Shown here: positions 3,671 through 57,100 of the stretch, piece after piece
How the letters are laid out: every line of letters starts with the position of its first letter
How positions within the stretch are numbered: the first letter of the stretch is position 1
Origin: Candidatus Omnitrophota bacterium
GTDB taxonomy: Bacteria; Omnitrophota; Gorgyraeia; Zapsychrales; JANLHA01
Direction: 5' to 3'
Length of the DNA stretch: 64,000 bases
Assembly (NCBI GenBank): GCA_038222225.1
Contig: JBBRHV010000001.1
Coordinates: forward strand, 13,864 to 77,863
Notes under the pieces: model-generated
What the model was told of the DNA's origin: nothing
The model's database searches: none
The model's input: the letters and a program-made list of their open reading frames with translations, nothing else
Made by a program: the position numbers and the translations under genes

Positions 3671-3700
3671 GATAAGGCTTATGGGGGGAGAAACCGATAG

Positions 3701-4558: not shown

Positions 4559-4576
4559 TTTTATAAGAGGGGAACT

Positions 4577-6064: not shown

Positions 6065-6125
6065 TAGAAATCCTTCCGGCTAAAAAACTAACGTACAATC
6101 TGGACATAAAAAAGTACCCACTTTT

Positions 6126-9100
6126 ATGAATGACAGAATGGACATAACTCCACAGGCCCTTCGTGCGGCTGCTTCTGAAGGTTCAGAGCAGGCGGAGATG
6201 CCTATGTCTGATAATGTCCAGAGTGATATATATATATCTAATCCTCAGCGGCCATTTAAAAGCCGTTTTAAGGGTTGGCTTCGTTTAGTTGCTGCTGTTG
6301 TGGTTTTTGTGTTCCTTCCTGAGCAAATCAGCTGGGCCATGAGTTACAATCCGGCGGTTTTATGGAGTGCGCAGCCGATTTCGCTGAGCGGGATGCCAAT
6401 TTCCGCACCAACCGGTCCGGCGTTAGAGCTTCAGCTTCCGCAGCAAGAAGCCTCCGAGATGCTGGCGACCAATATTCAGAGCCTTTTGAGCCGCGCGGCT
6501 CAGGAAGGTAATCGCAATTTGGAGATCCAAATTGCATCTCCCGACGAAAAAGAGTTCCGCAATATTGACGGGCTTCGTGTTTCAGCCAAAACGTCTTTAA
6601 GCCAGGAAAAGATTCAAGAGGCGGTCCGCTGGCTTCGTCAGCCGGAAATTCACCCGCTAAACTGCGGTGTTTTTGCCCTGTATGAATTCTTAAAATTAAA
6701 CAACACTCCGATCTCTCTGGAACAGGCCTCTTTATCGACGCTGTCCATTGACTTGCTTTCTGACATTGTCAAGCCGGGAGATGCGACGCTCAAGACGTCT
6801 TTGTACGCCATCGATAAAGTGGTTTCGCTTTATCAGCTGGAGTATGCGGTCATTAAGCTGGACCCCAAAGAGATCTTGAAACTGAACGCTCCTTTTATTG
6901 CGAATTTCGGAAAAGAACATTTTGTGACCGTCACGGCGCTTGATGAACAGGGCGTTCACATGCAGGACACGGGCGTCGCGCGAACGCTCTCTCAGCCGGA
7001 ATTTTTGGAAAATTTAAGCGGGTATGTTCTGATTTTAACAAAGAATATCCCGATTTCTGTTTCTTACCAAGATGTCAGTGACGTTGAAAAAGCCTTTGTT
7101 TGGGGCGACCGCTGGGTAGACCAATCCGACGAGTTGCCTGGATTATTAGGAGATGTCGGCGCAGCGTGGGCCCGCGCCGGTATGCAGGTTGCCATTTCGG
7201 TCGCTATTACGGTTGTGACCTTTGGTCTGGGATGCGCCATGGCCGTAGCGAGAGACGGCGTTCTCCTGGCCACCGAGCTTGCCAAACTCTTAATGCAGGT
7301 CATTGTTTCTGTGGCCCTGATCGGTATTTCGGAGCTGGTCAACACCATCAATCAGATTGCTGTTTTGAACGGCTGGTGGGATGAAGATGTCGGCTTCGTC
7401 ATAGGAATCGTTATCTCCACGGCCTTGTCGGTGGGGGCGGGCATGTTTGCCGGCGGCGCGGCGGGTTCCCTTGGGGCATCCGGCGCTACAGGAGCGGCGT
7501 CACAGACAGGGTCAGCCATCGGCGGCGCGGCGTTTGCCGGATTAGGCACGGGTATCTCAAATGTCCCTTTGACTTTTGCCAGAAGCTTTGCCCAAGCGCT
7601 CGTCGTTGCGATTCCCAAGGCATATCTTGCCAGGGAGCTGTATGAAATCATTGATATTGACGATCCTATTTTAAAATCAGCCGTGGTGGGGGTCTTGTCA
7701 TCCGTCGGAACCACCATTGGGTTGGTGGGGCTGAGTTTTGGCCTTGACCAAATTGGTTTAAATTCTGTTAATGGGTTTATGGGCATAAATGTCGCCGATT
7801 CTTTTACAGAATTTCTGAAAGATCTCGGTAAAAACGTGGGGCGCACCGTTGCGGCTAATGCGCTGGCGGTCGGGTTAAGATATCTCGCTTTGGAGATTGA
7901 TGATGAAACGTTTGCCGCCGACACCTTGGCGTCGCAGGCCATCGGACAAGTGGGGCAGGCCTTCGGCGGATGGATTTTTGATATGGCGGTGAGCGGATCA
8001 TTGCCGCAGCTTTTTGCCGGGGAGGTCCAGAAGGGGCAGATGTTTCAAGACCCTGGCTCTGAAAAGATGGAGGTGCAGGCGCAGGAGCTTTTTGTGACCA
8101 GGTCAGACGGAACGCCTGCTCGTCTTACCATGGAAGATCCGGGTCGATATACCTATACAGATACTGCAGGGGAGACGGTTTTTCTTAAGCCGGGGGAGGT
8201 GGTCGAGACAGTGCCATTGGAAAGAAACGACGCCGGTCAGTGGGTCCCGCAAGGGACTGCGGATAATAAGAAGGACGACAGCTCCTCTTCAAGCATGAGA
8301 ACTCCCACACAGTTTATGAATGTAAGGACCCATCAGCCGGTCCAAATCGCCGATTTCACAAAAGTTACGACACAGTATTATATAGCCGATAAAAAGGGGA
8401 TGCCGGCCTTTGTCGAGTATGATAAGGCAAGCGGGAAAATTACCATTCCCCAGAAAAGCGTTGACCAGTTGAAAGCCGATAATTTCCTGAATTTAGATGC
8501 TAACACCAAGTATTCTTTGCTCGAAGGAAAAGACAAGAATGGGAACCTGCAGCTGGGTTTAGGAAAAAGCTGGTTTTGGGGGACGCTGACGACAAAAACT
8601 TTGACGTCATTGGTGGGGGTTGCGTTGGCGTTCGGCATGGATCGTCTGGAAGATAAATTTATTGGTAAAGATGATCAGGGGCAGAAAGACAAGTTCCAAA
8701 CGCTCGGGTTTCGGCTGATGGCTTTTCTTGGAACGGCCTTATCAGCGGAAGCCACTGGAGCGCTTTCGCGTTCCATGTTTTCTGCTCCGAGTGGGACAGG
8801 TCTTAAGCCGGGTACGGATACGATCAGTCCATTTGGCGGTATTTTCATGAGGAGCGTAGAGAAGCTTGCATTAGGGATCAACGACAGCATGTTCAGAGCT
8901 AACGGCGCGATGCCGAAAGATTGGGATTGGAGTAATGGTGAAACGTTTAAGTTTGGGGGCGACGGAGTATCACGATATCGATATCAAGCAATAGATCAAA
9001 TGGTGCGTTTTTACGAAGGGGCCGGGGAAAGCGCCGGTTGGGGCTTGGATTCCTATTTTAAGATCAAAGACCTTCGTAAGCAGCTGGAAGGGGAGCAAGA

Positions 9101-12100
9101 GAAAGTAGACGGAAAGAAAAAAACCACGCAAAAATCCGGCGGGTTGTTGAACAGTATCAAAGGTCAGAACCTGTTCGGCGAAGGCGTGTGGAACGGCGGG
9201 AAGGTCGTTAAGGAAGAGAGCACAAAACTCACGGACGCACAATTCCGTTATTTTTTTGTTATGGGTGTGATTAACATTACAACGCAAGCTAAAAATGATT
9301 GGGCCATTGATCAGGTGAACACCAATCTGGCCGGAGGATTTGTCAACAGCGCGAGCGATCTTTATGTGGACGGAGGCATTGCCAAAAACATCAGATTATC
9401 GCTGGGATTTTTATTATCTGGTTTTAATAAACCGGAGATCACGCGGGATATTCTGGGGTTTGCTTATTGTGACTGGAAGGCCGTGCAGACCGGGCAGGTC
9501 GCGGTCAGTAAAGAGGTCTCCAAAAAATTAGTAGATCTGGGAGCAGACAAAGAGAACGCCAAAACAGCCCAAAAGGAAGCGCAGATAGTGGATCGGGCGG
9601 TTTGGGTTCTGTCGATTTCTGAGATGGTAGATTTGGGGAATAATCAGTACTCAGCTATGACCGGCTATAGCATGGTCGGCGTTGGGTGGACGGGATGGGA
9701 CATAGGAGAGAAGGATTTCGGGCGAGGGTTCAGTCATTTAAATTTAAAGATCAACCCTAAAATGGCAGAAAAATTAGGAATTTCAGAAAAGGATATTGAA
9801 AACGGCTTAAAACCAATTAAGGACGGAGAGCTTGCCGGGGAATTTGATAATGCTGCCTCAATCGAAGGGCTTGGGCCGAAGACGGTTTTAGGTATAAAAA
9901 ATGGATTAACAGCGCTGTTTGTTGAGCCGGGGTTAGATACGAACATTAATACATCTATTCGGTTGGCCGGATGGGATCAAGCCGAAGAGATTAATTTTTC
10001 GCGTGGTGCAGGCAGTGAAAGTTGGATGGGAGATGTTAAAAATCCGCATAATATTTCTCTTAAGGAAATGGGTGATCCCGCCAACCGCTTTGTGACCGAC
10101 AGAAAATATACGATAAGCTATCAAAAGGACTATCTTTTCCCGACGGTAAAGAACGCGACATGGTTGATCGGGCGGGTGAGTATAGGCCGGGAGACCTGGG
10201 GATATGAGCTCGACGCAGCAGACAAAACAAAACATCATCTGATGGAGCTGAAGAGCTTCTCAGGGATTAAACGAGCTTACGCAGGGGAAGGCGATCAAAA
10301 GATCTGGAAGCTGGAACAGCTGGATAAACCAAGGCTGAGTGTTTTCGGAATTAAGGGAAAAGTTTTTGGGGAAAAGTTGGCAGAAGCGTTCGCAAGTATG
10401 GGCATTTTTGATGCCGACAGCATTAATAAAGTTTTAAACGGCATCAATCCAGAAGATCTGAAAAGTCTGTACGACGCCGCCAGTGGCAAACTCAGCCCGC
10501 AGCAGAAAAAAGCTGGTTTGACGGCGCTCATTCAGAAGGCCATGGTGGATATTTTGGCTAAGGAAAGTTTTGAGTATAAGTCTCTGAAGGGAGCCATGGC
10601 AGAAGAGGGCGTTAGGATTGCCTTATTTGAAAAGTGGGGAGAAGACAAAAAGGTTGCGGAAAGCGGCCTGGCGCTTTTGGATTTGGGAGATAAACGCGAG
10701 GCTAAGAAAGGCGTGGACCGCTTTGTGTTCAGCCTTAATGCAGACAACCGGCTTTTGATGAATCCGCAGACATTGGATCTTCAAAAAAAGGAAGGCAAGA
10801 ATTCGGCGATAGACGGACTGGGAGTTTTTGAGATTGAAACTTTGGGGATTTCCAACGAAGATATTTTGCAGGGCCGGATAGCGATCGCTAAGGAAGGCGT
10901 CGGGGAAGCACAAATACAGGCCTATCAAGTGGCATTTCAGGCTTTGGATAAATCCGCCCGTCAGATCGCCGGGGTTCAGAATGCCCTGGAGACCATGAGC
11001 GCGCAAGAAGAGAGGGTCGCCAGCTTAACACAGCAGTTGCAGAATCCGGATCTTGACGCTGCGAAGAAAGAGGAACTGAAAAAAGAGATCGCGATCTTAG
11101 ATAGGGAAATAGGTTTGATGAAGGGCAATCTTCTGGTGGGGCATCAGGATATCGTGCAGAAGATTCGCAGCAAAGAAAAGGAAGTCGCTGATCTCATGCA
11201 GCAATGGAACAGTTCGGAATTCGGTTCCAAAAAGAAAGTGGCGCTGGAAGAAAAGATGGCTGCTCTGAATGTGGACATCGTTTCAATGAAAAAGAGCCTT
11301 CCGGAATATGTGCAGATTCTTGCGTCCAAAGACGGGGGTACGAAGGCAGCGTTAGGTAAAATAAAAGAAGAAGGCGCTAAGCTGGCTGCAAATTTGGCAG
11401 AGGTACAGAAGCTCAATCCGCTTACCGCCGGCGAAAAACGATTTGCCCTTGCCAGAATGTTCTTACCGACAAAAGAAGGAACGCATGCCACCTCTTGGGC
11501 AACCTCGTTTTTCCAGGAACGCCCGATCGCGAATTTAAGCTGGGAGTCTTTAAAGAAATATTATACCTATGAGAAAAAGGATGGGGTAACGCCTACTCCC
11601 GAAAAGGTCGCCTTAGGACTGGCGACTGTGGCAAGGGGTGAAAGCGCCAGTTCTCCTTGGGGAAACCTTGGCCAGACAGAAAGCCTTTCGGAATATGTTA
11701 TTAAAGGGAAGTGGACCAATATAAGAGAAACCGGCCTGGTTCATGTTCTGGACTATGAGCTTGGGGATATTCAAATGGGAGCCAATGGAGCCTTGGTGTA
11801 TGAAACCATCGGCACCGACGGAGCTATTTTAAATTTTGACCCGGCCACCGGGCGCGTGATGAAGTACGCTGCTGCTCAGGACGAAACGATTGAAGTTCCA
11901 ACAACGCTGAATAGTGATTTTAAGGAGAATTATGCGGGGACGTATCAAACGCATATTGTTTCGAATCAGAACGGCGTGCAGGTTGGAGGCGGCTCGATCA
12001 TCAGCCACGGGGACAAGTTCGGATGGTCTATCGGCCGCTTAGCGGATGTAGAAATTAAAAATAAGATCGCTGTTTATGATGGCATTAATTCTTATTATTT

Positions 12101-15100
12101 TGACCAGGAGGGCGGCAAGCCGGGGCAGTTCCGTGTCGCTAAAGAATATGAGCTGAAATACGACATGCTGAAATCCGGCTATACCAAAGAAGGCGTTAAG
12201 GACGGCGAAATCGCCCATCGGATGACCGCGGATGTTTTTGAAATGGCTTCGTTTGAAGTCGGCGGAGAAATCGGATATTCTTCGAGCGGAAAAATCTTCG
12301 GTTTCGACGATGCGTCGATCCAGCCGCTGTACCGTTTTGCTGAGGGAAAAAACGCCAAGCTGTTTGCCAAAGTCAAGAACGATCCGGCTGAGCGAGAATA
12401 CAAAGCTGAAAAGATCAATTTTAGTTTTTCAAACGATGGCGACGGGACGTTTGTATCTTTATCCAACTTTACGCTTGTCAAAGGTCAGCAAGACGCCAAA
12501 GCGGAAGGATCCGGCACGAGCGATATGAGTGTTGTGATGAAGGAAATTTTAGTCCCGATTCCGACCTTGTTTAACCGAAACACCGTGACTGCCCGTAAAA
12601 TGAGCAATGAAAATGAAGCGGCCGTTAAGCTCGCGGCCAAAAAACAATTTTCAAATATGAACGAGAAGATCGAGGCCATTGACGGAAACAATATTTTTGT
12701 TGTAACGGCGGCAGAAATGAAAGGCAGCGGAGCTTCTGAAACCGACACGGTTGTGCTGGTGACCGTTCCTGCTCATTCTGAGACGGACAAGCATGGGAAG
12801 ATCATAGAATATCCGGAAGCCTTGCGCCTTTATGTGCGCGAAGAGATTGCCAAAGATGTTTCTAAACTTTCCGATATCAAGATGATGACACACGAGGCAT
12901 TTTTGCAACAGAAGCAAATTGAGGTTGCGGCGGCGGACAATAAAACGAGAAAGGTTGCTTATTCAACAGCGGTTCGGCTGGACAACGAAGGGAACCCTCT
13001 TAAGGGATTGGATGACAGCGGCGCAGTAACGATGTTAGGAGATCTTTCACGTGAGGATTCCCCTTGGGGAAAAGAGATTGCAGCGCAGGCATCTCTGGTG
13101 ACCCGCATCATGGTGGTTGATCCAGCGGATATGCCGACCGGAGAAGGGATGGAGGGGGTCAACGCGGTTTTAAAAGGCAACATTTTGATTGTCACGCAAG
13201 CCGTGATCGACGATCCAAAAGAAATCAATGTGACCGCATTGTCGCATTTCGCTAAAGGAGAAATTATAACGGTGGTTAAAGCCGACGGCACCACCCGTAA
13301 AGTTCTTTTGAGCACGGAACTTTCTTCTGATGAGGGCAAGAAAGTTATCGAACTGGCCCAGCCGGCTTTAGATGCGCGAGCAGAGGCGCGGTTTGCTAAA
13401 ACTCATAAAAAAGGCGATGACCTGTTTGGGCGTAGTGTTTCTGAAGTCCGGGTGGTCGATGACGCGCTGATCGCCAACGGCCAGATGGCGCTGTCTTTTG
13501 AAGGAGATGTTTTGTATGTGGCAGAAGGGGCGCTGGCAAAAATGCAAGAAGCTCTACTGGGCACGCAGGAAACCGGAGAATTTTCGATGGGAGGACCGTT
13601 AGCGCTGGGAAACATCCGTGCTTCTCAAGCTGATCCTAACGGGGTTTATGCCAGCATTGCTTCAGGGCCTTTAGGCCGGATGATCTTAAATGAAAATAAA
13701 TTCACTCTTTATGAGGCTAATCTCAGCGAAGGGGATGTGCCGGGCGAGCTTAGAGCCAGGGACGCAAACGGAGTTCTGATGGGAGAGGCTTTGGTTGAAG
13801 ATGCCGGACCCAAGCGTTTGGCGTATATGTTTAGTCCGTTGCAGCAAGGATATCAGCCGGAGATCAGCGCAGATTTTAATATGAACGGGCGTCTTTTTGT
13901 TCCGGAGTCGAAGAAATTTTCAGTTAATATTTTTGAAGAAAAACAGGAATTAGCCAAGCCCCTGGGAGTTCCGGAAGGAATGCCGAATACGTTTTTGCCT
14001 CAGGCAAGCCGTTCCTTAACAAAATTTAGCGGGATTGCGGATTTTAAAGGCGGAGAGATCCAGATCCATGCCGGGTCAAGAGGCCAGAATGAAGCTTCGC
14101 AGACAATGGCCATAAAGGGAATCATTGACGGTAAAAATGAATGGGTTGCCACAACTCTCAAACAGACCAGTATGGATTTCTTTGATGACTTCGGTCGTAA
14201 ATCATTAAGCCAAGGCTTCTCGCAAGAATTAACGCGAGCCTTATCAAGTGAAAATTGGAAAGTAGCGGTCGATGAGGCGAAAGTGACGCCGGAGGCCGGT
14301 TTGCTGCGCTGGCATGGAGAGGATTTAAATCTGAACGGTTCTTCTGGTACGTTGTTCGCCAAGGTGACTTTGGCTGACGGAACAACGAAGGAATCAAAAG
14401 AGGTTCAGTACCGTCACACGTTTCTTGATCGGCGGTTGATGACCGATGCTGAATATGAAGTATATAAACAGGTTAATGCCGCTTCCCAGAATCAAGGGGG
14501 GGCGTTTGTCCCGCTGAGCGGCCGCGTTGCCGAAGCCTTTGTCAAATCGACGAAGGAAGGAGACCTTCCGATTGATCTGAAAGGTACTCAGATTTATAAG
14601 CGGCCCTTGAGTCAGGCCACGCGCGCGGCCTTGGCGATTTTGCGAAGCATTCTGCAGGATTACCAAGCCAATGGGACGGTTCACGCGAAGAAGGACATGT
14701 TCTTGCCAGGCATGGACAGCCTTGCTGCGGCTTTATCCGGCGCTTCTAAGGGAGAGCTGGACGCAATCATCAAAGAGGCGGAGCAGCTTTATGGGAGAGC
14801 GACACCGGATACGATTGTCAAGACCATGATTTATAAGAATTCTGACTTAGTAGCTATGATGTTGGATGTGGCTTTGGCTCAAGACGGCGCTGGGATGGCA
14901 TTTAAAAGCACTGCCGATGCCGACGGGCTTAAAAGCATGATTGAGACAGATGTTCATTTAGCAGTCTTAGGTAACGGCATGACCGGGATCAACGCTCTAA
15001 AGAATCTTGCTTTGAAGGCCGCGAACGGTGACATGGCAAAAGCCCAAGTAATGTTAAATGAGGTCTCGGCTGTTTTGAGCGGAACGTTCAGAGGGGCGGG

Positions 15101-18100
15101 AATGCTGAATGTTTTAAAACGCACGGAGTATAAGGATGCGGGCATATTAAATGAAATGATCCAGCTGGTTAAGCAAGGGAAAGATGGAAATAGCGGCTTT
15201 GGAGAGATGGAGGATTCCGCCAAATTAGCTGTGCTGGTTTTAGTTGCCGCGATGACTACGGGAAAGACAGACTTGATAAGCAATTTGGATAAGGATAATG
15301 CAGCTGTGAAGTTTTTAAAGCAGATGGGTTATCAACCCGGCATAGAGCTGACAAAAGTTGCCGAAGAATTTGCTAAGGCTTTTGATCTTTCAGATCCGGC
15401 GTTGACTGATAAGCAGAAAATGGAAAGGGCTTCGGGCCTTGCCCTTCTCACCAGTATCGGCAACACGATGAAAGGCGAAGATGATGCCGAGAATGCTTTT
15501 GAATTTATTATTCGAAATTCTGACGCGCTTAAAAACAGTAATTTGTTTTCTCCCAAGCAGGCAGTTTTGAATGAGTTATCTGAAAAAATAAATGTTCTTC
15601 AAAATTCAAGAACGAAAGACGCAAAAACAGGAGAGTTTAAACGTATAGGTTTGACTGTGTTTTCGGCAGATGCTTTGCAGGCTTTAGCGGATTTTGGCAG
15701 GGACCTTAGGGCATCAGTTGAATTGAACAACAAATTGACCGATGCCGGGATTTCTTTCGCGGATCGGGTTTCATTATTAGGAGAAGTCGACAAGCTGCAG
15801 ACGGAAAAAGGCGCAGATGGAAAAGCACTAAGCCCGATAGAGATCGTTGTGAGCTTGCTTGGCGGCGGGCAGAGGGCGCAAATTGCTAAAGTGTTCGGTA
15901 ATCAAGGACTGAATGAAACATTTTTGGATCAAGCGGTGCAGACCTATCAAACAACACAGCGCCAGGCGAAAGAAATAGAATTTATGAAGTTGGCGGGATT
16001 GATGATTTCAGAGGGACCGATCAATAAAGCAAATATTTCTGCGGATAAAGAAGGAGATCCTACTAAGGCGATCTTAAACGTTGACGCAACCAAAGGGCAG
16101 GGATTGTGGATCGCGTTTGGCGCTCCGCAGCAGAATCGTTTAGAAGCCTTTATGGCATCGCTTGCCGGCGGTAATGAATATGAGCTTTCAAAGGCTTTAG
16201 ATGCGAGCGGGATTTCAGTTAAGCAAAAGGAAGAGATTCAGCAGGCGGCTTCTGCGTTCAGTGAAGTGATGGCAGGAGCTGAATATACAGGTGTCAATCC
16301 GCAAGAGGCCTTTGCAAAACTTTTTGTCTCGAAACTTTCTGACGGTACCCTGCAGGCTTTGACCAGTGCAGGTGTGATTGATAAAATTGCACGGATTTCT
16401 AATCCAATCTATGACCAAAAGCAGCTGAATGTGAATTTCAATCCGCTCTTGGAAGGATCTGTGTTTACCAAAGGCGAGCCGGCAGGAACGCCTGGGATCA
16501 TGATTGCGCGCGATGATTTTTCGGGGATCAGTTCAGTTCTAAACAGCGGAGCAGTAACCATTAAGAACGGCATGTTCTTTATTCAAGAGGCAGGGCTTCG
16601 AACCACATCACCGATTTACGCGCCCGGCGTGATCGGACAGATGAAGAATGTGATCAATTATAAAGAAGGCGCGCCTGTCAGCGCTTCTTCGGTCGGCGTT
16701 CAGTATTCAGACATGATGACATCACAGGGCACAGAATGGAATGTTAATTACGGGCTGATCGCCATGCTTAAAGACGGTACTGCTTTCGGTACGTTTGATT
16801 TAGTAGGCGCAGATAAATATCAGCAGGATTATCTTTTTGTTCCGCAGGATTTTAAAGTGTCAGAAGGCTCGATGGCGTCTTTGGCGCAGGGTGAGAACGG
16901 TTGGACTCAGACCCGTTTTGCTGACGGCGCAACACTGAAAGGGGAATTTTTCGGCGGATATATGTCAAAGGATGGGCTTTTAAGCAGCGCAGTTTTGTAT
17001 GGAAAAGGCCCGTTCTGGGAACGGGTGAAAGAAACGCCGACTGGTTATACCCCACGCCAAACGAAAGATATGAATCTGGCAACTCTCGCCATGGTCGAAG
17101 GCGATAACATTATGGGCAATAGCAAGACTGATGTTAAAGAAGCGTATACCCGTTTTACGACGCCGGATAAAGACACGATAGTATCTGCCGTTCCGATGGA
17201 TATCGGACCGGATGGAAATAAAGCATATACGGCCATGGCTGAAAACGGCACGCGTTTGGTGTTTGCTCTTGGCTCCAAGGGCCCTGACGGTGAAGGCTAT
17301 TTTACCGGCATGCTTCGCCCGGATTTCAGACGGCCGGGAAGCTTGCATTTGTTTTCTAAGGATACAGTTCTTTACGATAAAAAAGGCAAGCTTGACCTGT
17401 CCAAGGCGATTATTCAATTTGTTAAAGGCCGCGGAAAATATCAAACCGATATTGGTAATTTCTTAAACGCAGCAGTGGATGAAATATTTTTATCAACAGG
17501 AGTTAAGCCGGGCGTGTCTGTTCGTGAGGGCATGTATGCTTACGGGCGGCTGCCTAGTTCAGAAGCAGTTATACCTAAAGGAAGAGAGGCGCCGGAACAT
17601 TTCGATACAACCGGTACACCTGCCGATGTGCTGGTTGGTCAAGTCTTTACGGAAGACGGCGGAAAATATTTCGGAAAAGGCTTTTTAGGGCGGTTTACGG
17701 ATAATGCGTTTGTTGGTCTTGCGAAGCAGCGGTCATTTCATGGCGATCTGGCGCAGAACGATATTCCTAATTGGCTTGGTTTTGAAGAAAAAGGGCTACA
17801 GGTTTTGGGTGAAGGAGGACAATGGCTTGGCGTAAGCAAGGATACATATAAGGCAAGAGTCTATCAGATATCGCTTGCCAAAAAAGAAGGCAAAGAAGAT
17901 GTCTATGTTCCTATTCTTATGAAGGCAATGACGTTTGCAAATGGCTCAGTAAGGCGGGAATTTAGACTGCAGGGCAAGGAGAAAAAAACAGATGCAGAGT
18001 ATGGGAGTCTTGTATTCAAGAAATTTGAATTGAATTCTCTTGTCGCAAAACTTGAGGCGATAATGCCTAAAGAGAATGTGGAGAAAAAAGACAACAGCAT

Positions 18101-45100: not shown

Positions 45101-48100
45101 CGCATATTATCAGTTCAACGATCGCACCCAGGTCAAGCTTGAAATGGGTGTTAGCGGTTCCGGCCGCACAACAGATGCAGAGCTTACGGCGATCGACACA
45201 TTCACCGGAAAGCAAATTTTCAAGGATACCGTTAAGATCAATAACACCGACTGGTTTGATTATCAGAAGATGACCTTTACGCATGCCTTGAATAAAAATT
45301 TGTCGCTCCGCTTCTCCGGAAGCCGTGAATTTGAACAGGGCGCCATGGGCATTGCCGAAGATGTGACATCCTATTTTGGCACAATCGGGGCTGATTGGAA
45401 ATTCGGCGATCTTCTCATGAAGGACGACAAACTTCTGATTTCAGCGGATTATGGGTTTAACGCCAACCGTGAAGCCGGCGATCGCACTCGTCTCATGCTG
45501 CAGTATCAGCAATTCTATACCTCTGTTGGCATGTTCGGCGAGGCACTGTATTACAATGCCGGCATCAAGTTAACGGATTCCTTAGTCGCTGAATTCGGCC
45601 AGCAGAAGACCGGCGATCTTTACGGACGTTTAGGATATGATCACAGCGGTTTGCGTTGGGATGCCGGTCTTACTGGTCAGGGCCAGGTCAGCAGCGGATT
45701 AAAAGTAGACCTTTTGAATATGCCTGGATTCCTGACCAAGCTCTTTAAGATCGAAACACCGGAAAACTTCAAGATGCCGGAACTGCATACCCGCAAACTT
45801 CAGACATTACAGGAGAAGATCATCTTCGCTCCGTTGGCAGAGGCACAGCATCAGACGGTCCAGATGAACGTTAATAAGACGGAAGCCACCAAAGACATCG
45901 CTAAATATACAACGCTTGTCAACGCAGTGAATGGACATGATGTGATTCCCGGCCAGCATGCCATTGCCGCTGACATCAAGATTTTAACGGATCCGAATAT
46001 TTCAGCCGAGGCGATGCCGCTGTACGGTCCGTCACCATTTGGATTAACACAGGCGGATAAGACGTATACAATGCGCTTTGTTGATCTGACACCAGAACAG
46101 CTGACCAAATACGGCATCGGCAAATATCCGAAAGAAGAAAGATTCTACATCCGCAGCACTTGGATCGATGCGCAAGGCCGTACGCAATCATTCAGTCAGG
46201 AATTTGCCGCGCAAGGCCTGGTGATCTTAACCGAGAACATTGACAAGTTAAGCGTTGAGACTCAGAAGGCGCTGGGCACATACCGCAACATTATTCCGGT
46301 CAAGCTCACCAACGCCGGTTATGAAGCGACCAAGGACGCACGCTTCGGAATGGTCGCCGGGCAGACGATCACAGCTGAAGATTTCGCTCTTTGGCTAGAT
46401 AACACTGTTGATAATGGAACGATCTCAAGCCGCGTGATGAGCCAGGTTGATCCGAAGACCGGCGAACCGGCACGTCAGCTGTTCCTGGCCAAAGACGGCA
46501 AAGTCACATCCTTAGACCTTACGAAGGAAGGGTATGATGCGATCGATAAATACACTGAGAACAAAATTTTGGTTCCTGTGGAAAGCGGATTAACAGTATA
46601 TTTGACCGGTGCAGAAGCACTTCAGTGGATCTTGGATGGCAAGTTGATTTATATGAAAAATATAGATCCTAAGATTGACGCTACACATGTTTTAGCAACG
46701 GCTGATGGGAAATTAGTCGGTTACGGTGATGCCATTGTGAAAGGAAAGTATTTGGTTCCGGAAATCGAAGCGTTTATGAAGGACAAGGTCTTGGTTCCGT
46801 TAAAGGGCGTCCGGTCTTCAACAGCTTATTTAACCGGAGCAGAAGCACTTCAGTGGATCTTGGACGGCAAACTAATCTACATTGAAAATACAGATCCTAA
46901 TATTGATGCTACACATGTCTTGGCAACAGCTGATGGAGAGCTGGTCGGTTACGGAAATGCTTTGATTGACGCCGGTTATATGATTCCGGAAGTTGAAGAA
47001 TTCATGAAAGACAAGGTTGGAGTTTTGACCTCCGAAGGAAGCCGTTACTTGACAGTTGACCAGTTTGAAGCGCAGAAAGAGGCTTTGGATGCTGCTTATC
47101 GTCCGAATGCAGAAGGCAAGATGATCCTTTCAGTCCCGGCTCCGAAGCAGACAAAGTTTAGAGTAACCACTTTCGAATCTGAAGGAGAAAAATATGTCGG
47201 CGTCAAGCTTCCTACAGAGATCGAAAAGAGAAATAAGGCGATGGATGACGGGCGGGCATATTTTGAGAACGGCCAGTTCATTATCCAGGATGCCGGCAAT
47301 GAGGCCAATCGTATCGTCGGCACCATAGCCGGAGAAAAATTGCTTGAACCGGCAGCTTATGTCACAAAGGCGACCGTGCCGCAGATGAAGTATAAAGAGG
47401 GAGAACAGGTTTTTGTTAAGGGTAAGGGTTATGCATATTATGAGAAAACATTGACCGGGAAATATGAGCCGACCGCAAAAGTGATCTACAACGCCGAGAA
47501 AGACGCAAAGGTTCCGGGTTATCTACCGCTCAAGAGAGTTGTCGTGATCTTACCGAACAGAGCAGCGCAGATTGAAGGGGAACTCCTCTTGAACAAATTC
47601 GGAGCAGTGGAAATTAGCTCGATCCAAAAGAGATATTATTTTGTTATCGGTGAAGACAAAGTAGGCGCCTATGTTCCAGTTGATGAATTGGTCAACCGAC
47701 GCTCAGAATTTATAAGTAAAGTTCAAGAGATCGTTCGATATGGCGACACCTTAGAGCGAATCTATTTGGATGCCAGCGCAGCTGACGGTCAGGTGGATGA
47801 AAACGATAAAGTCACGATTGTACGCAGCAACAGCCGTACTGACATTTACCGATTAGGACAATATACTATCGACGCCAGTGGAAAACTCACCTTAACAGGT
47901 GATCCGATCGGCGAAGACCTTCTTCTTGCTCCTGAGGCGGATGGTTCGATTAAGGCTCAATTGATATATGGAATTCAGCCGTTCGTGATCCCGGCTGCGG
48001 AAGTTAAAAACAACACATATCATTTGAACAGAGATTTCTATTATCAGAGAGAAACCATCAATGTCTATAATGCTGAAGACAAGCAAATCCGACAGATCAT

Positions 48101-51100
48101 GCCGTTAAGCGATACGATTATTTATTTATCGCCAAAGGATGGTTATGCAACGCATGTGACAGATTTGAGCGGCAATCTCAGAATTGTTTCTCAGACAGTC
48201 GAACGAGTGGAGAATGGCGAAAAGGTCGTTGAGACAACAGATGTTCAGGTGGATGGGAAGAACAATGGATTCGCAATGGTCAAGAGGACCACCTATAAGA
48301 ACGGCGCATTGCGCGAGATTTTGGTCGGGGTTATGAAGCTTGCCAATAAATATGATCTGAGCCAGCCGTTCCCGACAGTTAAGCCGGAGATCTTCACGCT
48401 TAGAGATTCTTATTCTCAATCTGAGCGCAGAGTTGATATTCGAACCAACGGCGAATGGCATGAAGGATGGAGAATTTATGGAAAGATCAACAAGCATATT
48501 CAGCGGTTAGAGGCTCAGCAAACCCGGACAGTTGAAGAGGATCGACAGCTTGCAGCATTGCGACAGGCGCAGACATTTGTGGATAAATTCACTCCGTCGA
48601 CTAAAGAGGCCTTAGATGCGCTGGCTGGAAGAGGAATTCAGCTGAATGTTCAGTTAAGCCCGAAAAACAGCGTTGCTGTAAACAAAGACACAGTTCTTAC
48701 GCCTACGGTTGTGGTGTTCCCGAATCAGGTTATATCCATTGATTGGCGCTTAGATAACGATATTTTAAATCGCAAGCTTATCACTGTACGCGCAGCTCAG
48801 GGCCGTATTGTAGAGATGATTGTCGGAACCGAATTTGATCAGCGAAGCGGAGAGGTTACAAAGACGTATACATTGACATCCGACGCCCAGATCAAGAGCC
48901 GGTTTGAAACAGCTCCTGCTCCGGAAAGAGCTGACAATATCTTTACTGGGCTCATTGTTAAGAGCTTTGCAGAGGTTGCGCATAAGCGATTCTCGGATGA
49001 GACCGCTAACCTGTGGAAGTTCTTAGAATATCATGGCGTGTCTCAAGCAACGCCGCTGACAGTCTTAAAAGAAACACCATATTTACCGGATGAAACCGGA
49101 AGATATACAGAAAAAGAAGGCGCAGCAACAACGCATTATCTGATCCCGGATGACAGCCGCGGCCGAAGCTTGACTGTGGTTTATCCGACTGAAGATCAGA
49201 GTTTGAACTTATGGCAATTTGAAGGCCGGGAGGTTCGCATAACCAATGGTAAAGAGCGAAAAGTGACCTTCGGCGTCGGCGTCACTCCAGGAAACATCAC
49301 ATTTAAGAAGGACGGAAGCTTGCGCGGTATTGAAATCTATCACACAACCGTGCGCGAACAGCAGATCAATATTTCCTATACTCAAAAGGTCGTGGAAAAC
49401 GGCACGACTCATGAACGCGAATATACTGTTACGAAAGAAAAAGACGGGGCGCTTAAATTAGTGGTTAAGCAGGATGGAAACACGATCGCTTTAGCGGTTG
49501 GAAATGAATATGAGGTCCTGGACTCAGGCTTAAAGAAGAATGTTTTCTTTACACAGGGCGGTCAATTATTAGCAGAGAGCCATCAAAAGGTCGTTGGCCA
49601 GATCCTCAAAGAGATTTTGGGTGTTCAGGTTCTCGGCGAAAAGATCACGATCTATGATGTTCTTTCACCGTATAGACGTCCAGTGTTCTCGTTCGATCTG
49701 GAAGGCAATCTTGTAGACGAATATCTGGAGCAGGAGTTCAGCATCGGCGAAGAAGTGAAGCTTGATGGAACAAAGACATATGTTCAGAAAACAAAACTCC
49801 GCGTTATAGAGCCGGAAGGATACGCGCCGGATAAGAGGTATGAACAGGAATATCATTATACCGGCGACAAGATTGATTCCAAGGCGCGCCCGGGTCTGTG
49901 GCAAAAGTGGGCGGAAGATTCGTCTTCCTGGATGAATATTTCTAAATTGTGTGGCTTGTTTGTCTTCCTTGCTTTCGGTGTCGGCAGGCTTTGGTCCTGG
50001 ATCGGAAACATTGTCCGCTGGATCAAAGGTGTTAGAAAAGGTAAGACTCAGCCGGATTCAATTACACTGCAGTATACGCCTGAAGAGATCGAAGCGGTTC
50101 TTGAAGCGATCAAGAATCTGCCGGATTACGGATGGCAGTCTGGCATTGCGGATCAGGCCCGGGAAGCCGTTGGGGCAGAATTCAAACGAAGATTGTATGC
50201 CGGTGAGCGTGTGGAAGATATCGTGAAAGACCATTTCAGTTATTACAGAAAGAACTGGTTTATACCGGTCATGGGTAATACGAAGGATAAGGATGCGATC
50301 CTAACTGCGGATGAATTTAAAGCTCAGCTGGCTGAGATCGATGCCTATGGCGTTAAAGAAATGTACATCAATTCTATGACAAAGATCGGAGCAGATAAGC
50401 TGTCTTATGTATCTCTCTCCACGGGCGCTGCATTGTTCTGGATCGCTATGCAGAGATATAAAAAGGCGAGAGCTGATGGAGATAAGGTTGACGCGCCTGA
50501 CGCGCCGAGCGCTACCAATGCGAGCGTCAATCTCGGACATGAGATTGAATTTAAACATGTTGGAATATTCTCTAAGTTATTGACTCTTCATAATGGAAAG
50601 TCAAAAAGTGAGGCCATTCATCATGATGATATTGATTTGTATTTCAGGACACCAGGGTGGTTGAAGCGCTACATTACGCAAGACGATGATGGAGAGACGG
50701 GTAGAGATATCATTGCAAAAGAGGTTGCAGATCAGCTCTCTGGGGCTAAAAAGGTTGGAATCAATGAGATTCTATTGAAAGCCTATCCGGATGTCAAGAC
50801 CGGGTGGCGTGGTATTAAAGGACGGGCCCGTATGCTTACGACCATCTTGAAATATCTCAATGTCATCGTAGGGATAACCGCTATAGGGAGTTACGGGTTG
50901 GTTTGGAGCGGAACATTTTCATTGTCTGTGGCGATTTCTGCCAGCACTTTGGCCTGGTTGGGCGGACTTGTCATCTTCATTGCATTGTTGGTCGCGATCA
51001 ATTTCGGCATAAGATTTGCCGATAAAAAATGGCAAGAAAAGCTGACGTTAAAGGAACAGAAAACTTGGGATACAGTGCCTTTGGATGCAGGAATTAAGCC

Positions 51101-54100
51101 AGAAGATTATCCGAAAGGAACCAATGGACGCAACTGGCGGGCAAGGATGATTTTTGCCATTATTATAGGTATGAAGCTCATTGCGGGTCTTTATATGTTC
51201 AAGTGGTTATCTGTACCAGTTGGCATTGCCTGGAAAGGCACTGTGCTCTTGCCGGCAGTTCTGGGCGGAGGCACGTTGATCGGCGGAAACTTATTGATTG
51301 TGGGTCTGTTTGGAGTCGTTTTTGCTGGGATATTCCTGCTGGATATTTTTGCCTATTTCTATCTGGTCGAGACGGTGCTTGGGACTTGGATCGCCCGTTA
51401 TCAAGGGATCAATCGCGTGCATAGCTGGAGACGCAACTCGCTGAGCGAAGGCGCTTGGATGCTCTCTCTGTTTGGATTGCTCAAATGGGTCTTGCCGGTC
51501 AACGCCGCTCTTATTCAGCAGTATCTTTTGCTTGGTATTGGATATGTTGTTAAGAGCAGCACTGTCATTGCCTTCTTCAGTACACCGGTAGGCGGGGTCG
51601 TTATGGTTGTTGGTGTGGTCATCTTGCTATTGGCTTTAAGGGCTATTGTAAACGCAATTTTAAGTTCAATGGGATTTGAACGCATTGGGGGCGATACGTT
51701 TGTAGAAATGTTTGGTAAAGCGCAGAAACAATTTGCTAATAAAATTCTTCCGTCTTCGGTGGTCCGGCCGGATGGCACCAGGGCGGCATTGACAGCGCGT
51801 GAAAAGTTTGTGGCCTGGGTCAAGGCGTGGAACATGATCGTTCATCAGATGAGAGAAGATGATATTATCGGCGATGAAGAGGAGAAGAGATTAAGCTATA
51901 AGTTCACAGGAGAGTCTGAAGAGGATTTCTTGGAGATCACAGGTAAGATCACAGGGCCGGATCTGACGGTTACACCTAAAGACGGACGCGCACGCAAGCG
52001 CCTGCAGCATTTCATCTCTACCTTATTTATGGATATGGAGCAGACCCCGATTTGGGAGAGAATGTATTTGTTCTCTGCTGTGTGTCCAATCTTTGAAGAG
52101 CCGAATATGTATCCGTTTAAAGATAAGTCGGTTGGGGTTTACGATGCTATTAATGAAGTATACAAGACAGGAAAGACGTTCTTGACGCATATTATTTCAA
52201 AGGTTCCGCATCAGTGGCAGTATTTTATTCAGCGCATGGAAGACAAATTGCAGATTTTTACAGAAGAAATGACTGAAAAAGCAAAGACGAATCCGAAGAT
52301 CACTCAAGACATGATCGATGAGGCTGTCAGTCGTAAGCGGGATGATATTGCGGCCATGAAGGCGCTTGGTATGGGTCAGAGGCTGGTGCTTAAGGATACC
52401 GAGATGATCAATGAGGTCCGGGCCTGGGTCAGCTACCGCTTCCAGCCGTTCTCCCGTACAGCGCGCGGGATCATGACGTATCATCAAATGTATGAGTTCC
52501 AGGCTAAGGTCAATTATCCGACCGCAGAAGCTCTGAATGCCACACAGAAGATCCGGGGTGAGAAGCCGGAAGAAAAGAAGAAGAGTTACGTGCAGCGCAT
52601 TATAGACATTGTTAATGAGAAATTTGAATTTGTGGTTGGGGATTTTGTTTACGGGGGTCATCGGAATGGTACAGACGGATCTCCTGAAGCCATGCTCAGA
52701 GATGATATGCATGCGCTTATGGCCAAGTTCCCGGGAGGCATTAAGCTTGTGTATTGTGCAGCTCCAGATAAAAAGAACCCTAATTATGCACCAGTAAAAG
52801 TTGAGTATTTTGCAGGTGTTCCGACACAGGAAGATCGGGATGCCGGTGTGATTATGCATGAGTATGAGGATGAATATACTCATCAAATCACCGGATACTT
52901 GAAACAGGTCCGCGCCTTTAATATTCATAGTTATTTCTTTGCCGGCCAAGGAAAACCGGTCAACCAGAATAACATGTTCCGTTTCACCAAAGGTGAGATC
53001 ACGCAGATGATGGATATGAACCAGGATATGTATCTGGAGGAGACGTTTAAGGCGCCAAGCATGATGGAAGAGTTCCGTAAAGATCCTAAGATCGCGATCA
53101 TAGGGTTCCCTGAAGATATCTTTACAGATTACTTCAGCCCTGCCGGTGCTGTCCACGCCTTCGGAGATCGGACATTTGTCACCATGGTTCAGAGGGTCTT
53201 AGAGTTTATGGGGATCCGCTTCCATTACGGGCATCCGGACTTTGTCCGTACCAATGCCTTTAGACAGCTGGGCTTATTGAGCGCGCCGTGGGTGAACGAA
53301 GACATTTTTGGCGCGTATAAAGCCATGCTTTATGGGCAGAAAGTGATCAATCGCGAAACCATGCAGGCGGGTAAAGCGCGGGAAGCTATGTATATTGCTT
53401 TGATCGGTATTTCAGAAAAATTCGGCGCCGGCGGATCTGAACAGCCGTTGACATATATTGTTCAGCTCCTTAACCGTTCAGGCATTTTCGGATTTGCGCA
53501 AGGATTTATGCATGTGGTCGCGTCCATGGGTTATTTCTTGCGCAAGGAAGTCATCGTTCTGACAAATAACAACTATATTTTGATCCTCCTGTTCTTAGGG
53601 GTGAGCGCGTTTGCGGCCTTCCCGAACGAGTTGACATGGGGTCTGATTGGTTTATTGATGTCACAGGCCATTACCTCTACCGGATGGGCTCAGGTCTGTA
53701 TCGAAGATGGGTTGATTTTAGGAACTATTCGATTTATAAAATTGTTCCCGTCTTTGGCCATGACATACATGTCTTTGATTTATAACGCTTTTGCTCCGGG
53801 AAGCAGAAAAGCGTATGTGAATCAAGCCGGCTATGTGGCAACAGGTCGGCCTCCGGGGCTTCAGCACATGTATCCGTTCAGGCCGACGAACCATATTCTT
53901 GTTAAGTTAAGGGTCATTGCCGGCGATCTTTATGGACATGTAAACTTGAGCGGATATGCCTGGGTGGTTCCGATGGTCGCGATCTTAGTGAGCGGCCTTA
54001 TCTTGTGGCTGAATCCTGGTCAGGTGTATTCATTATTCTTTATTATGTTAATCCTGTCCAGTATGTTTGCTCCGTTTATCCTGAGCCCTGGTTCTACACC

Positions 54101-57100
54101 GATCACCATGGGTATCCGCCGTTGGTATAAACAGCATTTCACGGATGATGTTCCGAGATTCTTTGAGAAGATCGATAGTTTTGGGAAGGAGGACACCATT
54201 AAAGATGTCCTATTTTCTGGGAAAACCAAACCTGAGCCAGCTGGTTTTGAAATGAACAAAGAGTTCAAGAAAAACGGAGTACAGCATGTAACAATTAATG
54301 GCCAGGATCTTACAGTCGGAAAAGAGGTTTTAACGGTAATGGATGTAAACGGAGTTTCTGAACCGACCGGCTATAAGGTTAAGGAAATATTCAAGAATAA
54401 GGTGGTTCTCGAAAAAGGAAAAGAAGATTTTATTGTACACAGAATGAATGCTTATTATGGAGCCGCCAGAATAGTAATAGTGGCAGTTGTAATAGGAGCG
54501 GTGTGGCTTATTCCGGGCAATTACCTTTATATAGGAATTATTCTCTTCAGCATTTTCTACCTGGGGTTAGGCTTTGTTTCAGATGCCAAGAATCTTTGGG
54601 CTAAGATCTTAAAACTCAAAAATATTCAGAAGATTCTGAACCATCCAAAAGTTAAAAAGATCCGGGATGATCAAGCAAAGAAAGCCAAAGAGCGTAAGGA
54701 TGAGCTAGCAAACGGCAAAGAGCGCTCAACAGCTGAAAAGGTTCGGGATTTTCTGACATTACCGAAAGGTAAAACTTTACGGGATATTATTAATCTTTAT
54801 ATGACAGGCATCATTGTCATGTTGATGTTGACCGCGTTGGGGGTTGTTACATCGGTTATTGTTGCCGCTCCATATACGGCCGGGTTGTTTATTCGTGCTC
54901 AGATCAAGTTCTTACGTCTGCCGTCTTTGGCGAAGTTTGTCGGCTGGTCTTCTCTTGTTATTTGGCTAAGTAAGCTGGCTGTTCCGGCAATCTTATTATA
55001 CACAGGCGGGTTTGCGGCATTTTTGGCCGTGGTTGGGTTTGAGGTTATCATCGGATCCTTCGCATCAGGGCTGTTCACCGGAGAGGCCGAGGATGCACAA
55101 TTGGCCTTAGATATTCGTTCGCTCCATGAGGAAAAATCTCAGAGTGTAAAGGGTACAAACAGCGCGGTCTTGGCTAATCAGAAGAATGACGGCAAGAAAG
55201 ACCTCGCCCGCACTGAAGACGGCGAGGCATTGAATGACGGACAAGAAGCTTTCTTAAGAACATTGATCGATCAATATCAGGATCAGATCGCCGCGGGTGA
55301 GCCGGTCGATGCTGCGGTCATTGAGAAAATTGCCGCTCTCCTCAGAGAGCAAGGGTATGTTCATGTTGCCAATGCTCTTCTGAGTAAAACCGTTGTCCGC
55401 GGGCCTCCGTCATTGTTTACTGATTTTGAAGAAAGCATCCATAGAGTCCTTCTGGGTACTATCACAGGGACTCACATCATCATCAATCCGATGATCCTTT
55501 CTCATCCGGTGGAATTAGCCCGCACGATCATTCATGAAGCGGGTGCTTCTGCCGGGTTGTCCCATAACGAAAATAAAGAACTCGAAAAATTAGCGCATCC
55601 GCTTTTGGTGGCGATCGACGGCCTCTCAGCAACAGGGAAGTCCGCCGTTAGCGGTTATTTAAGCAAAGACCTCAAATTTGTCAATATCTCCATCGGGTTG
55701 ATCTACCGTTTCTTCGCCGCATTTATCAAACAATCCAATTTTGCGGTGCTCAGCGATCTCGAATTTGAGCAGCTCCGCGAGATGGCTGAAAAGATCAGCT
55801 ATGTGAAGAATGAAAACGGCGAGTGGAATTTTGTGGTTAACGGTCAGGTGATCAACAGCAATGATCCGGCGTACTTTAATCCGGAAATTGAGAAAGCACT
55901 CAGCGAGCATCTCTCCAAAAAACTCCATCCGTTAGTCCTTCCGGTGGCCAGAAGAGTTATCCGTCAGGTTTTGGCCAGCGGTGAGAACGTTGTTGTTGAG
56001 GGTAGGATTGCCTGTGATTATATCGCTCCATTTGCTGATGTGAAATTGAATATTGTTGCAGAATATTCTGTACGCGCGCAGAGACGGATGGAGCAGCGCA
56101 TCGCGCAGCATGGCATAGAGAAAGCCTATATGGATGCCATAGGCACCAAGAACGCGGCAGAATACCAGCAACGGGTGAGAATGGTCGCCCATGAAATTTA
56201 TGAAAAAAGTGGGCATAAGCCCGGGAATGACCTGGCCAATTGGGCGGAGGCGGAAAAGAGGGTCAGAGCTGAAATGGCTTCTAAGATCGAAGAGGGAGCA
56301 AGGACAGTGGAGGCGGAAAAGAGGGTCAAAGCTGAATTGGCTGCCAAGATTGAAGAAGGATTGCGGAGACGCGATAGAAAAGATCAGGAACATTTACCGA
56401 AAGCGCCAGTTCAGCCCGGTAATGTTGTTGAGATCGACACAACGCATGCCCATGGTTTGGATGAGACCATTAGCAAGGTTCAGAAAGTTATTTCTCAGGC
56501 CTATCTCAGCGGACGAACAGGCCTCAGCCCGCAAGTCGCAGAGGTGACGCAGCAATTAGCATCTTTGAAGGCAGGCGAAGCTATTCCAGAAAGCTTGAAA
56601 CAGGCCATTTTGAAGGTCTTGCCGGTGATCGGTGAATTGAGCGAAGCCAAGATCGTTCACACGTTCCGCAATCTTGAATATCTGCACAGATTAGCAGCGC
56701 AGGATTTTGATTATTTCTACGATCACTTAAGCGAGCAAGAACGCGCCACGGTTGAACGGGCAGAATATGTGGCAGCGTTACAGAGCATCTATAAAGCGTA
56801 TGCAGCGTTAAGCGCACAGGAAAAAGAAGCGTTATGGCTGACTGTCGCGCTTCATGACATCGGATATATCCGTGTTAAGGACCATACCCACATGAGAGTC
56901 GGGGCTGAGATGGCTCGCCCGATTTTGGAAAACATCGGATTGAACCATGAGCTGATCGACCTTGTGGTCTTTACAATCAGCCAGCATGGTTCTATCGGAA
57001 ATTTGGCCCTGGGTGAAACAACTCCGAAGACAATGTTAAAGGCTTTAAGCGCCGTCAGCCCGGCTCTTCGGGCTGGACGTGCCCGGTTTGTCCGCCTCAT

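Follow-up and report, generated by a model that had tools for sequence, protein, structure and literature searches.

A giant Omnitrophota protein carrying a candidate outer-membrane-type beta-barrel linked to an FKS1-like GT48 glucan synthase module

The stretch of DNA analyzed here (64,000 nucleotides from a Candidatus Omnitrophota bacterium, GenBank assembly GCA_038222225.1, contig JBBRHV010000001.1, positions 13,864 to 77,863 of the forward strand; hereafter the window) carries one giant open reading frame (ORF) of 19,305 codons. The encoded chain contains transmembrane (TM) clusters, a degenerate M23/LytM domain, a beta-barrel candidate and a GT48 glucan synthase module. The original prediction, made on the same DNA, had placed the last three in one chain, and all of them indeed lie within the same ORF. 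We propose that residues ~10,200-16,330 form an envelope module that acts as a single-chain analogue of the synthase-dependent secretion systems for exopolysaccharides. Its GT48 part would polymerise beta-glucan and translocate it across the inner membrane, and the barrel would fix the assembly in the outer membrane and probably serve as the way out for the polymer. Taken as a whole, with the coupling of the two parts included, this reading of one-chain glucan synthesis and export is tentative and somewhat improbable. The elements of the envelope module are as follows.

6084-63998, forward strand: giant ORF (six-frame stop scan; start-codon contexts)
36717-38393, forward strand: TM cluster 3, residues 10212-10770, about nine helices (hydropathy, loop charge counts)
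39933-40178, forward strand: degenerate M23/LytM domain, PF01551, residues 11284-11365 (Pfam E 1e-8, 35.7 bits against a cut-off of 28.7)
43425-44606, forward strand: all-alpha, coiled-coil-like region before the barrel, conserved together with it (AlphaFold model 2, periodicity, colinear homologs)
44796-45677, forward strand: outer-membrane-type beta-barrel candidate, ~16 long antiparallel strands, residues 12905-13198 (AlphaFold models, amphipathicity)
47931-49946, forward strand: conserved N-extension of the GT48 module, residues 13950-14621 (jackhmmer, BLAST colinearity)
49947-50003, forward strand: conserved single TM helix, residues 14622-14640 (aligned hydropathy)
50856-55058, forward strand: putative GT48 FKS1-like 1,3-beta-glucan synthase module (Pfam, PDB FKS1, hydropathy, invariant motifs)

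Frame +3 is free of stop codons from nt 6084 to nt 63998, and the 3′ end of the gene lies past the window; every other frame in the window holds at most 1,087 open codons. Translation probably starts at ATG 6204, which GGAG precedes by 6 nt. ATG 6126 and ATG 6138 are alternatives, but ATG 6204 is the best placed and gives an N-terminus that resembles a Sec signal peptide. One rival explanation is that the frame is a decaying pseudogene or an artefact of assembly or annotation, and an exact match of the upstream TadB-like T2SSF gene (nt 3701-4558) was found in only one Logan contig of 2.8 kb. However, 19,305 stop-free codons at 48% GC are impossible by chance, the domains score well over curated cut-offs, an ortholog fragment (P0001) is 68-76% identical to the window, and in dozens of related loci the open frame takes up 22 kb. 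We consider this explanation effectively refuted.

Giant genes are known from Omnitrophota. The published giants have an N-terminal C39 domain near signal peptides and numerous TM helices that are hard to predict (10.1101/2023.11.21.568195), and they show SecA_DEAD domains and T2SS-like loci upstream (10.1101/2023.11.21.568195; West-Roberts et al. 2023). Among 916 long proteins, 94% have TM helices or a signal peptide (Nielsen & Lui 2026, 10.64898/2026.06.07.730766). Multiple TM clusters separated by thousands of soluble residues are the published norm for Omnitrophota giants (10.1101/2023.11.21.568195; 10.64898/2026.06.07.730766). The window protein shares with them an ORF of more than 10,000 residues, a C39 domain beside a signal-like segment, clustered TM helices with long soluble parts between the clusters, a mix of metabolic domains and domains related to the cell wall, and Tad/T2SS genes immediately upstream. 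The homologs of its modules come almost exclusively from Omnitrophota metagenome-assembled genomes (MAGs). It differs from them in that the 19,305 residues in the window, beyond which the gene extends further, gave no Pfam match to SecA_DEAD, HEAT, TPR or GT5/GT1 and contained no dockerin domain. Conversely, GT48, M23 and an outer-membrane-type barrel are unmentioned in both surveys (10.1101/2023.11.21.568195; 10.64898/2026.06.07.730766). The window protein is very probably a giant membrane-threaded protein of the Omnitrophota type.

The GT48 module is composed of TM block 1 (residues 14925-15190), a catalytic domain (residues 15298-15840) and TM block 2 (residues 15823-16325). The original prediction had described a single TM cluster at 50850-55070. 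The TM helices were confirmed, but they are really two blocks, and because these blocks flank the GT48 catalytic domain, the whole region is one FKS1-like unit. The Glucan_synthase family (PF02364) matched with an E-value of 1.4e-50 and 172.9 bits against a cut-off of 37.2, FKS1 chains in the PDB matched with an E-value of 9e-21, and invariant GT48 motifs such as NQDxY and RxHYGHPD are present. These matches point to an FKS1-like glucan synthase, with beta-1,3-glucan as the putative product. FKS1 is made up of a TM region plus a cytosolic one that is large, and the cellulose synthase BcsA has the same fold (PMC10499315). With the fungal and plant FKS1/callose synthases the window module shares the Glucan_synthase match (173 bits), the flanking TM blocks and the conserved motifs, and FKS-like metagenome loci match the part that precedes its first TM block. 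Unlike them, the window GT48 belongs to a bacterium and is part of a giant ORF; it adds a predicted extracytoplasmic N-extension of ~670 residues and an extra TM helix, and no Rho1-type regulator is evident.

The N-extension, the single TM helix and the region before TM block 1 (residues ~14680-14925) were found by jackhmmer in 54 related sequences. The single TM helix reaches a Kyte-Doolittle (KD) value of at least 1.4 in 19 of the 25 homologous loci listed, with divergent sequence. Two FKS-like metagenome loci, L059 and L076, both taken to be eukaryotic, were matched by the part before TM block 1 only. Eight homologs of the GT48 module were found, all partial proteins on short contigs; the four with names are all Candidatus Omnitrophota or Omnitrophica. 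A scan of genome contigs with the single GT48 protein gave no match, whereas an alignment-based scan succeeded and gave 46 GTDB loci, mostly from Omnitrophota. The remaining loci came from some Planctomycetales-labelled bins, a few Endomicrobia, one Verrucomicrobiaceae and one Methanosarcinales MAG. The alignment-based scan also gave 401 metagenome relatives, the more distant of which resemble eukaryotic FKS genes. In nearly all bacterial loci, the GT48 match sits in an open frame that spans the whole 22-kb fetched stretch. FKS1-like GT48 modules with this N-extension and one extra TM helix are a widespread feature in Omnitrophota, with a few in Endomicrobia. The locus binned as a Methanosarcinales archaeon MAG (L046, JAIWAR010000013.1) also holds GT48 in a giant ORF; its contig may belong to an Omnitrophota epibiont of methanogens and have been binned wrongly. 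Among the papers searched, none pairs Omnitrophota with glucan synthase.

The barrel candidate lies upstream of the N-extension, and its relatives are few. A word-indexed homology search found no relatives for the segment or for its family profile, whereas scanning 1.84 billion representatives exhaustively with HMMER gave seven, all fragments of more than 1,100 residues except the two shortest (179 and 720 residues). About 16 members of the barrel family have now been collected. AlphaFold model 1, built on an alignment of eight sequences, is all-beta with ~16 long strands. The independent model 2 (residues 12440-13240) repeated the strand pattern and placed an all-helical region before it, with helices at residues ~12559-12709 at a pLDDT of 74-88. 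In Foldseek searches with both models, the top matches were nearly all outer-membrane barrels. Independently of AlphaFold, the period-2 hydrophobic moment of the barrel family is 0.78 versus 0.52 ± 0.06, above all 300 column shuffles, and the candidate shows hydrophobic alternation in each strand. The region before the barrel has a 100-degree helical moment of 0.77 versus 0.63 ± 0.04 in shuffles. A last-strand beta-signal, GxxΦDΦ, fits the window and the fragments P0001, P0002 and P0003; we discarded this motif as evidence because the wider family alignment does not keep it. The original prediction had put a beta-barrel-like region at 44980-45730 and had suggested AlphaFold as a check. Amphipathicity and AlphaFold/Foldseek now place this region at residues 12905-13198, with strand-rich models whose structural neighbours are nearly all outer-membrane barrels, although the confidence of the models is low. 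The structural evidence is consistent across methods and soft. On these models, we lean slightly towards a genuine outer-membrane-type barrel.

The barrel candidate is genetically coupled to an inner-membrane processive synthase in the same ORF, though this coupling is not universal. It precedes the GT48 N-extension by 330-900 residues, both in the window and in L002, L007, L008, L009, L017 (the same as P0002), L043, L050 and L057. Both order and spacing are kept in these nine lineages, the window included. In L017 (Candidatus Zapsychrus exili) the barrel and GT48 parts are in different frames, which overlap by ~70 nt at nt 8999-9066, and the break is either a sequencing frameshift or a real two-gene split. 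In all other loci the frame is continuous over both parts. Neither the embedded barrel family nor its conserved association with a bacterial GT48 module seems to have been reported.

The degenerate M23/LytM-like domain, which had been claimed at 39905-40190, was recovered as the Pfam match at nt 39933-40178. In alignments to PDB 2hsi, 3slu and SpoIIQ 3uz0, four of its five catalytic/zinc residues are replaced: His by Thr and Asp by Pro in HxxxD, the catalytic His by Asp, and the first His of HxH by Glu. The ortholog fragment P0001, with an M23 match of 39.7 bits, has the same substitutions of the HxxxD His and Asp and of the first HxH residue, and it has His at the fourth position where the window has Asp. 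Judged by these residues, the domain is a degenerate LytM and no active peptidase. The best NCBIfam match is SpoIIQ (E 8e-6), far under the family cut-off. The domain shares with the degenerate LytM factors SpoIIQ, EnvC and NlpD the M23 fold with replaced zinc/catalytic residues, but the similarity is weak and the window domain would lie inside a periplasmic block of 3,850 residues. SpoIIQ serves for protein docking in a channel bridging two membranes. No SpoIIIAH-like or amidase partner was identified for the LytM domain of the window.

The sidedness of this block depends on the membrane segments and on domains elsewhere in the chain, which are as follows.

6204-6338, forward strand: Sec-signal-peptide-like segment, RPFKSRFKGW-LRLVAAVVVFVFL-PEQISWA/MS (sequence reading, KD peak at residues 64-82)
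6633-7058, forward strand: Peptidase C39, PF03412, residues 238-321 (E 1.5e-8; 34.9 bits against a cut-off of 22)
7182-7745, forward strand: TM cluster 1, residues 367-554, ~4-6 helices, Gly/Ala/Ser-rich (hydropathy)
19818-23351, forward strand: Gly/Ala-rich block, residues 4579-5756, about six weakly hydrophobic uncharged segments (composition, hydropathy)
29409-29708, forward strand: GNAT acetyltransferase, PF00583, residues 7776-7875 (Pfam E 8e-12; NCBIfam rimI-like)
55608-56987, forward strand: cytidylate kinase, DUF2934 and HD (Pfam; NCBIfam cmk E 7e-18; PDB cytidylate kinases)
60474-60536, forward strand: internal Tat-type lipoprotein signal, SRRNFIQSIAVAGAAILAGG/C, residues 18131-18151 (NCBIfam TAT_signal_seq E 2.9e-5)
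63804-63869, forward strand: TM helix near the window end, residues 19241-19262 (KD 2.31)

TM counts and sidedness were taken from simple KD hydropathy and not from a trained predictor, which already tells against the envelope reading. The chain has 32 strongly clustered KD 19-mer peaks of at least 2.0, where 200 shuffles gave 5.4 (maximum 12). At a threshold of 1.6 there are 47 peaks against 32.6 in shuffles, and because this excess is modest, lone weak peaks need other support. Instead of the four well-separated TM clusters first claimed, we found three robust clusters and several single TM helices. The claimed clusters at 7130-7780 and 36700-38560 hold as residues 367-554 (~4-6 helices, hydropathy) and residues 10212-10770 (~9 helices, hydropathy and loop charges), respectively. 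The elements at residues 64-82, 14622-14640, 18131-18151 and 19241-19262 had been absent from the original prediction.

TM cluster 3 starts with three tight hairpins, followed by three further TM helices, and the hairpin loops on its entry side are rich in Lys and Arg with no acidic residues. A K/R-rich entry side and an odd number of helices (~9) would therefore place the next block outside. The block with the LytM domain, the helical stalk and the barrel, which are all modules of an envelope type, would thus be extracytoplasmic. The TM helix at residue 14622 would return the chain to the cytosol, where the FKS-like region before TM block 1 would be followed by a TM block with an even number of helices and then by the GT48 catalytic domain. 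The GNAT domain is placed in the cytosol because it is acetyl-CoA-dependent, and the block of cytidylate kinase, DUF2934 and HD is expected to be cytosolic. For the first 10,000 residues, sidedness hinges on how many helices cluster 1 has and on the membrane insertion of the Gly/Ala-rich block, which is uncertain. The envelope-spanning arrangement put forward earlier is topologically coherent, with the barrel-to-GT48 order kept, but its sidedness comes from hydropathy and from the expected location of the domains.

In the arrangement that we propose, the giant chain would cross the cytoplasmic membrane repeatedly, and the TM clusters would split it into alternating cytoplasmic and periplasmic blocks. 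The cytoplasmic blocks would hold the nucleotide- or CoA-dependent enzymes, namely the GNAT domain, the GT48 catalytic domain, the CMP kinase and the HD domain. The block of ~3,850 residues from cluster 3 to the TM helix at residue 14622 would be extracytoplasmic and would contain the dead LytM domain, the alpha-helical stalk and the barrel of ~16 strands. As in SpoIIQ, EnvC and NlpD, the dead LytM may serve for docking to peptidoglycan or a partner. The chain would then re-enter the membrane as an FKS1/BcsA-like GT48 synthase-translocase, tied covalently to the barrel via ~1,400 periplasmic residues.

Synthase-dependent exopolysaccharide systems are known for cellulose (BcsA/BcsC), poly-N-acetylglucosamine (PgaC/PgaA), PelF/PelB and Alg8/AlgE, and the partner of BcsA in the outer membrane is the 16-stranded porin BcsC. 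The window module differs from these systems in several ways. It is contained in one polypeptide and not in an operon, its synthase is GT48 and not GT2, and its barrel is internal between membrane anchors whereas theirs is C-terminal. The window protein also lacks a detected TPR, PilZ or cyclic di-GMP (c-di-GMP) module and any detected sequence similarity to the porins.

Many results weigh against the one-chain synthesis and export reading. The barrel models have low confidence (mean pLDDT 51 and 55, pTM 0.48 and 0.34 for models 1 and 2, respectively, with seven to eight sequences aligned). The Foldseek matches are weak (E ~1e-3, TM-score 0.3-0.43), and polysaccharide porins are not favoured among them. 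The barrel profile found nothing meaningful among solved outer-membrane proteins in the PDB, the candidate has no match in Pfam barrel families, and when the barrel family was compared by hhalign with the BcsC and PgaA barrels of E. coli, the probability was at most 0.2%. Upstream of the barrel, no TPR family was found even at E up to 5, though the region is helical, and no PilZ or c-di-GMP module was found in Pfam scans of the window protein. In about 16 GT48 loci with enough upstream sequence there is no detectable barrel, and the barrel fragment P0006 has no GT48 extension within 2,200 residues downstream, so the linkage is bound to a clade and is not universal. The residues directly after cluster 3 are rich in Lys and Arg, which is unusual for a translocated segment. 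Finally, we know of no protein shown to be integral to both membranes, although no search aimed at this was made.

The low pLDDT of the models also suits a different explanation, in which the beta-rich segment is a soluble sandwich or an open sheet in the periplasm or cytoplasm, the barrel is a modelling artefact, and the protein resides in the inner membrane only. Period-2 amphipathicity suits soluble sandwiches too, and the segment has no sequence link to outer-membrane proteins. In addition, DeepTMHMM found no credible barrels in 947 Omnitrophota giants, although the authors of that survey say that it gives only a soft call at such length (10.64898/2026.06.07.730766). On the other hand, two independent models and two search methods gave almost only outer-membrane barrels among the top matches, and about 16 meander strands, each 12-25 residues long, would be unusual for a soluble sandwich. 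We consider a soluble domain possible but doubtful.

A real outer-membrane barrel may also have no role in polymer exit. It may be only a tether that, like OmpM/SlpA, fastens the inner-membrane-anchored giant to the outer membrane, or a polypeptide translocator that, like type V systems, would deliver adjoining parts of the chain to the cell surface for prey contact, and the closeness of the barrel and GT48 would then be structural. The OmpM/SlpA tethers combine an SLH domain, a coiled-coil stalk and a barrel, and the order in the window of a cell-wall-type binding domain, a long helical stalk and a barrel recalls them. However, the window protein has no SLH domain, it has inner-membrane anchors on both sides, and its spacing is far larger, with the degenerate LytM 1,600 residues away from the barrel. 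The permissive Pfam search showed no passenger-like repeats or adhesin domains beside the barrel; over the stretches between LytM and the barrel and between the barrel and GT48, this search (E up to 5) returned noise only. The barrel-to-GT48 order and spacing kept in nine lineages also argue against this explanation, and we regard it as rather unlikely.

In its strict form, the envelope reading requires a single polypeptide integral to both membranes, with inner-membrane anchors on either side of a BAM-type barrel of ~16 strands that is hard-wired to GT48, an arrangement that would be conserved in a clade of Omnitrophota giant genes. We think that this strict form is unlikely to be right, though possible. 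The topology problem would be relaxed if the ORF encoded a polyprotein, which the C39 domain or signal peptidases would cut into inner-membrane, periplasmic, lipoprotein and outer-membrane products. In that case no single chain would span the envelope, and either function of the barrel would fit. The idea has been raised for the Omnitrophota giants (10.1101/2023.11.21.568195). The C39 domain retains Cys194 (NCGVFAL) and His279 (HFVTV), which suggests an active peptidase. A textbook Tat-type lipoprotein signal lies at residues 18131-18151 of a protein with only 16 cysteines. It is the sole match to [ST]RRxF[LIVM] in the protein, at about residue 18,130, and its Cys is one of the 16. This internal Tat/lipobox segment could be a relic of a fused gene or a site processed by Lgt/LspA. 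The different frames of the barrel and GT48 parts in L017 would also suit a polyprotein or separate products. However, no cleavage sites were identified, the other loci keep a continuous frame over both parts, and the L017 break may be a sequencing error. Processing of the ORF into separate products is a possibility that we do not favour.

The Omnitrophota giants are known, but their function is largely unassigned, and the published surveys describe many helices of the inner membrane and nothing in the outer membrane. If the barrel is real, this would to our knowledge be the first polypeptide integral to both membranes, and present ideas of how Sec, YidC and BAM work together on a single substrate would be called into question. 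The reading of one-chain synthesis and export, if true, would assign a function to a conserved module of 6,000 residues, namely envelope-spanning synthesis of beta-glucan and its export or attachment in ultra-small predatory or epibiotic bacteria. The wide occurrence of a GT48/FKS1-type synthase in a bacterial phylum is relevant to how the eukaryotic callose and beta-glucan synthases arose.

Other parts of the chain were characterized as well. The N-terminal signal-like segment (residues 64-85), read by eye, has a K/R-rich n-region and the hydrophobic LRLVAAVVVFVFL, followed by SWA/MS. In cluster 1 (7182-7745), small-xxx-small motifs are enriched over composition (z 3.9), as is GxxxG (z 2.4), and the cluster includes a stretch of 64 residues without any charged residue. 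The Gly/Ala-rich block, which had been described at 19820-23350 as a glycine-zipper-rich TM cluster of ~1,150 residues resembling a pore or channel, did not bear out this description. The block contains 13.5% Gly and 13.7% Ala, and its uncharged Gly-rich segments are 17-22 residues long. GxxxG occurs 20 times versus 21.2 expected from composition (z -0.3), and GxxxGxxxG three times versus 2.9. The resemblance is an effect of composition with no motif enrichment, and we rejected the glycine-zipper channel on these composition-controlled shuffles and on the weak hydrophobicity of the six or so segments. The block has no family match, and permissive Pfam searching (E up to 5) gave noise only.

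The cytidylate kinase match covers residues 16509-16679 (Pfam E 4e-20), with DUF2934 and HD downstream. In a phmmer search against the PDB, three of the four 5,000-residue chunks of the protein had no sequence relatives. Internal repetition was tried as the origin of the ORF length and rejected. Because self-BLAST of the giant protein showed only one repeated domain, of ~170 residues in three copies (residues 8827-9000, 17711-17889 and 17962-18122; window 32562-33083, 59211-59750 and 59967-60449), the length is not derived from repeats. No family could be assigned to this domain. Its last two copies are 63% identical and sit just ahead of the internal Tat signal. Cys is strongly depleted in the giant protein (16 of 19,305 residues, 0.08%), and seven of the 16 cluster at residues 16644-17425.

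The genes upstream of the giant ORF include one further feature.

3308-5458, forward strand: Tad/type IVb pilus genes, a Flp/TadE-like prepilin and two T2SSF genes (TadB/TadC-like) (ORFs, Pfam, motif)

The two T2SSF genes match Pfam T2SSF with E-values of 8e-18 and 6e-12, and the prepilin shows the motif G/VTTVEY, read from its sequence. The Tad set lies directly 5′ of the giant gene, which fits the T2SS/Tad neighbourhoods published for Omnitrophota giant genes. The neighbouring ORF at nt 2-3262 (at least 1,087 residues) runs off the 5′ end of the window and has no Pfam match. It is Cys-rich by eye, and it holds a short exact tandem duplication in which GICEQYVDPLIIQ occurs twice.

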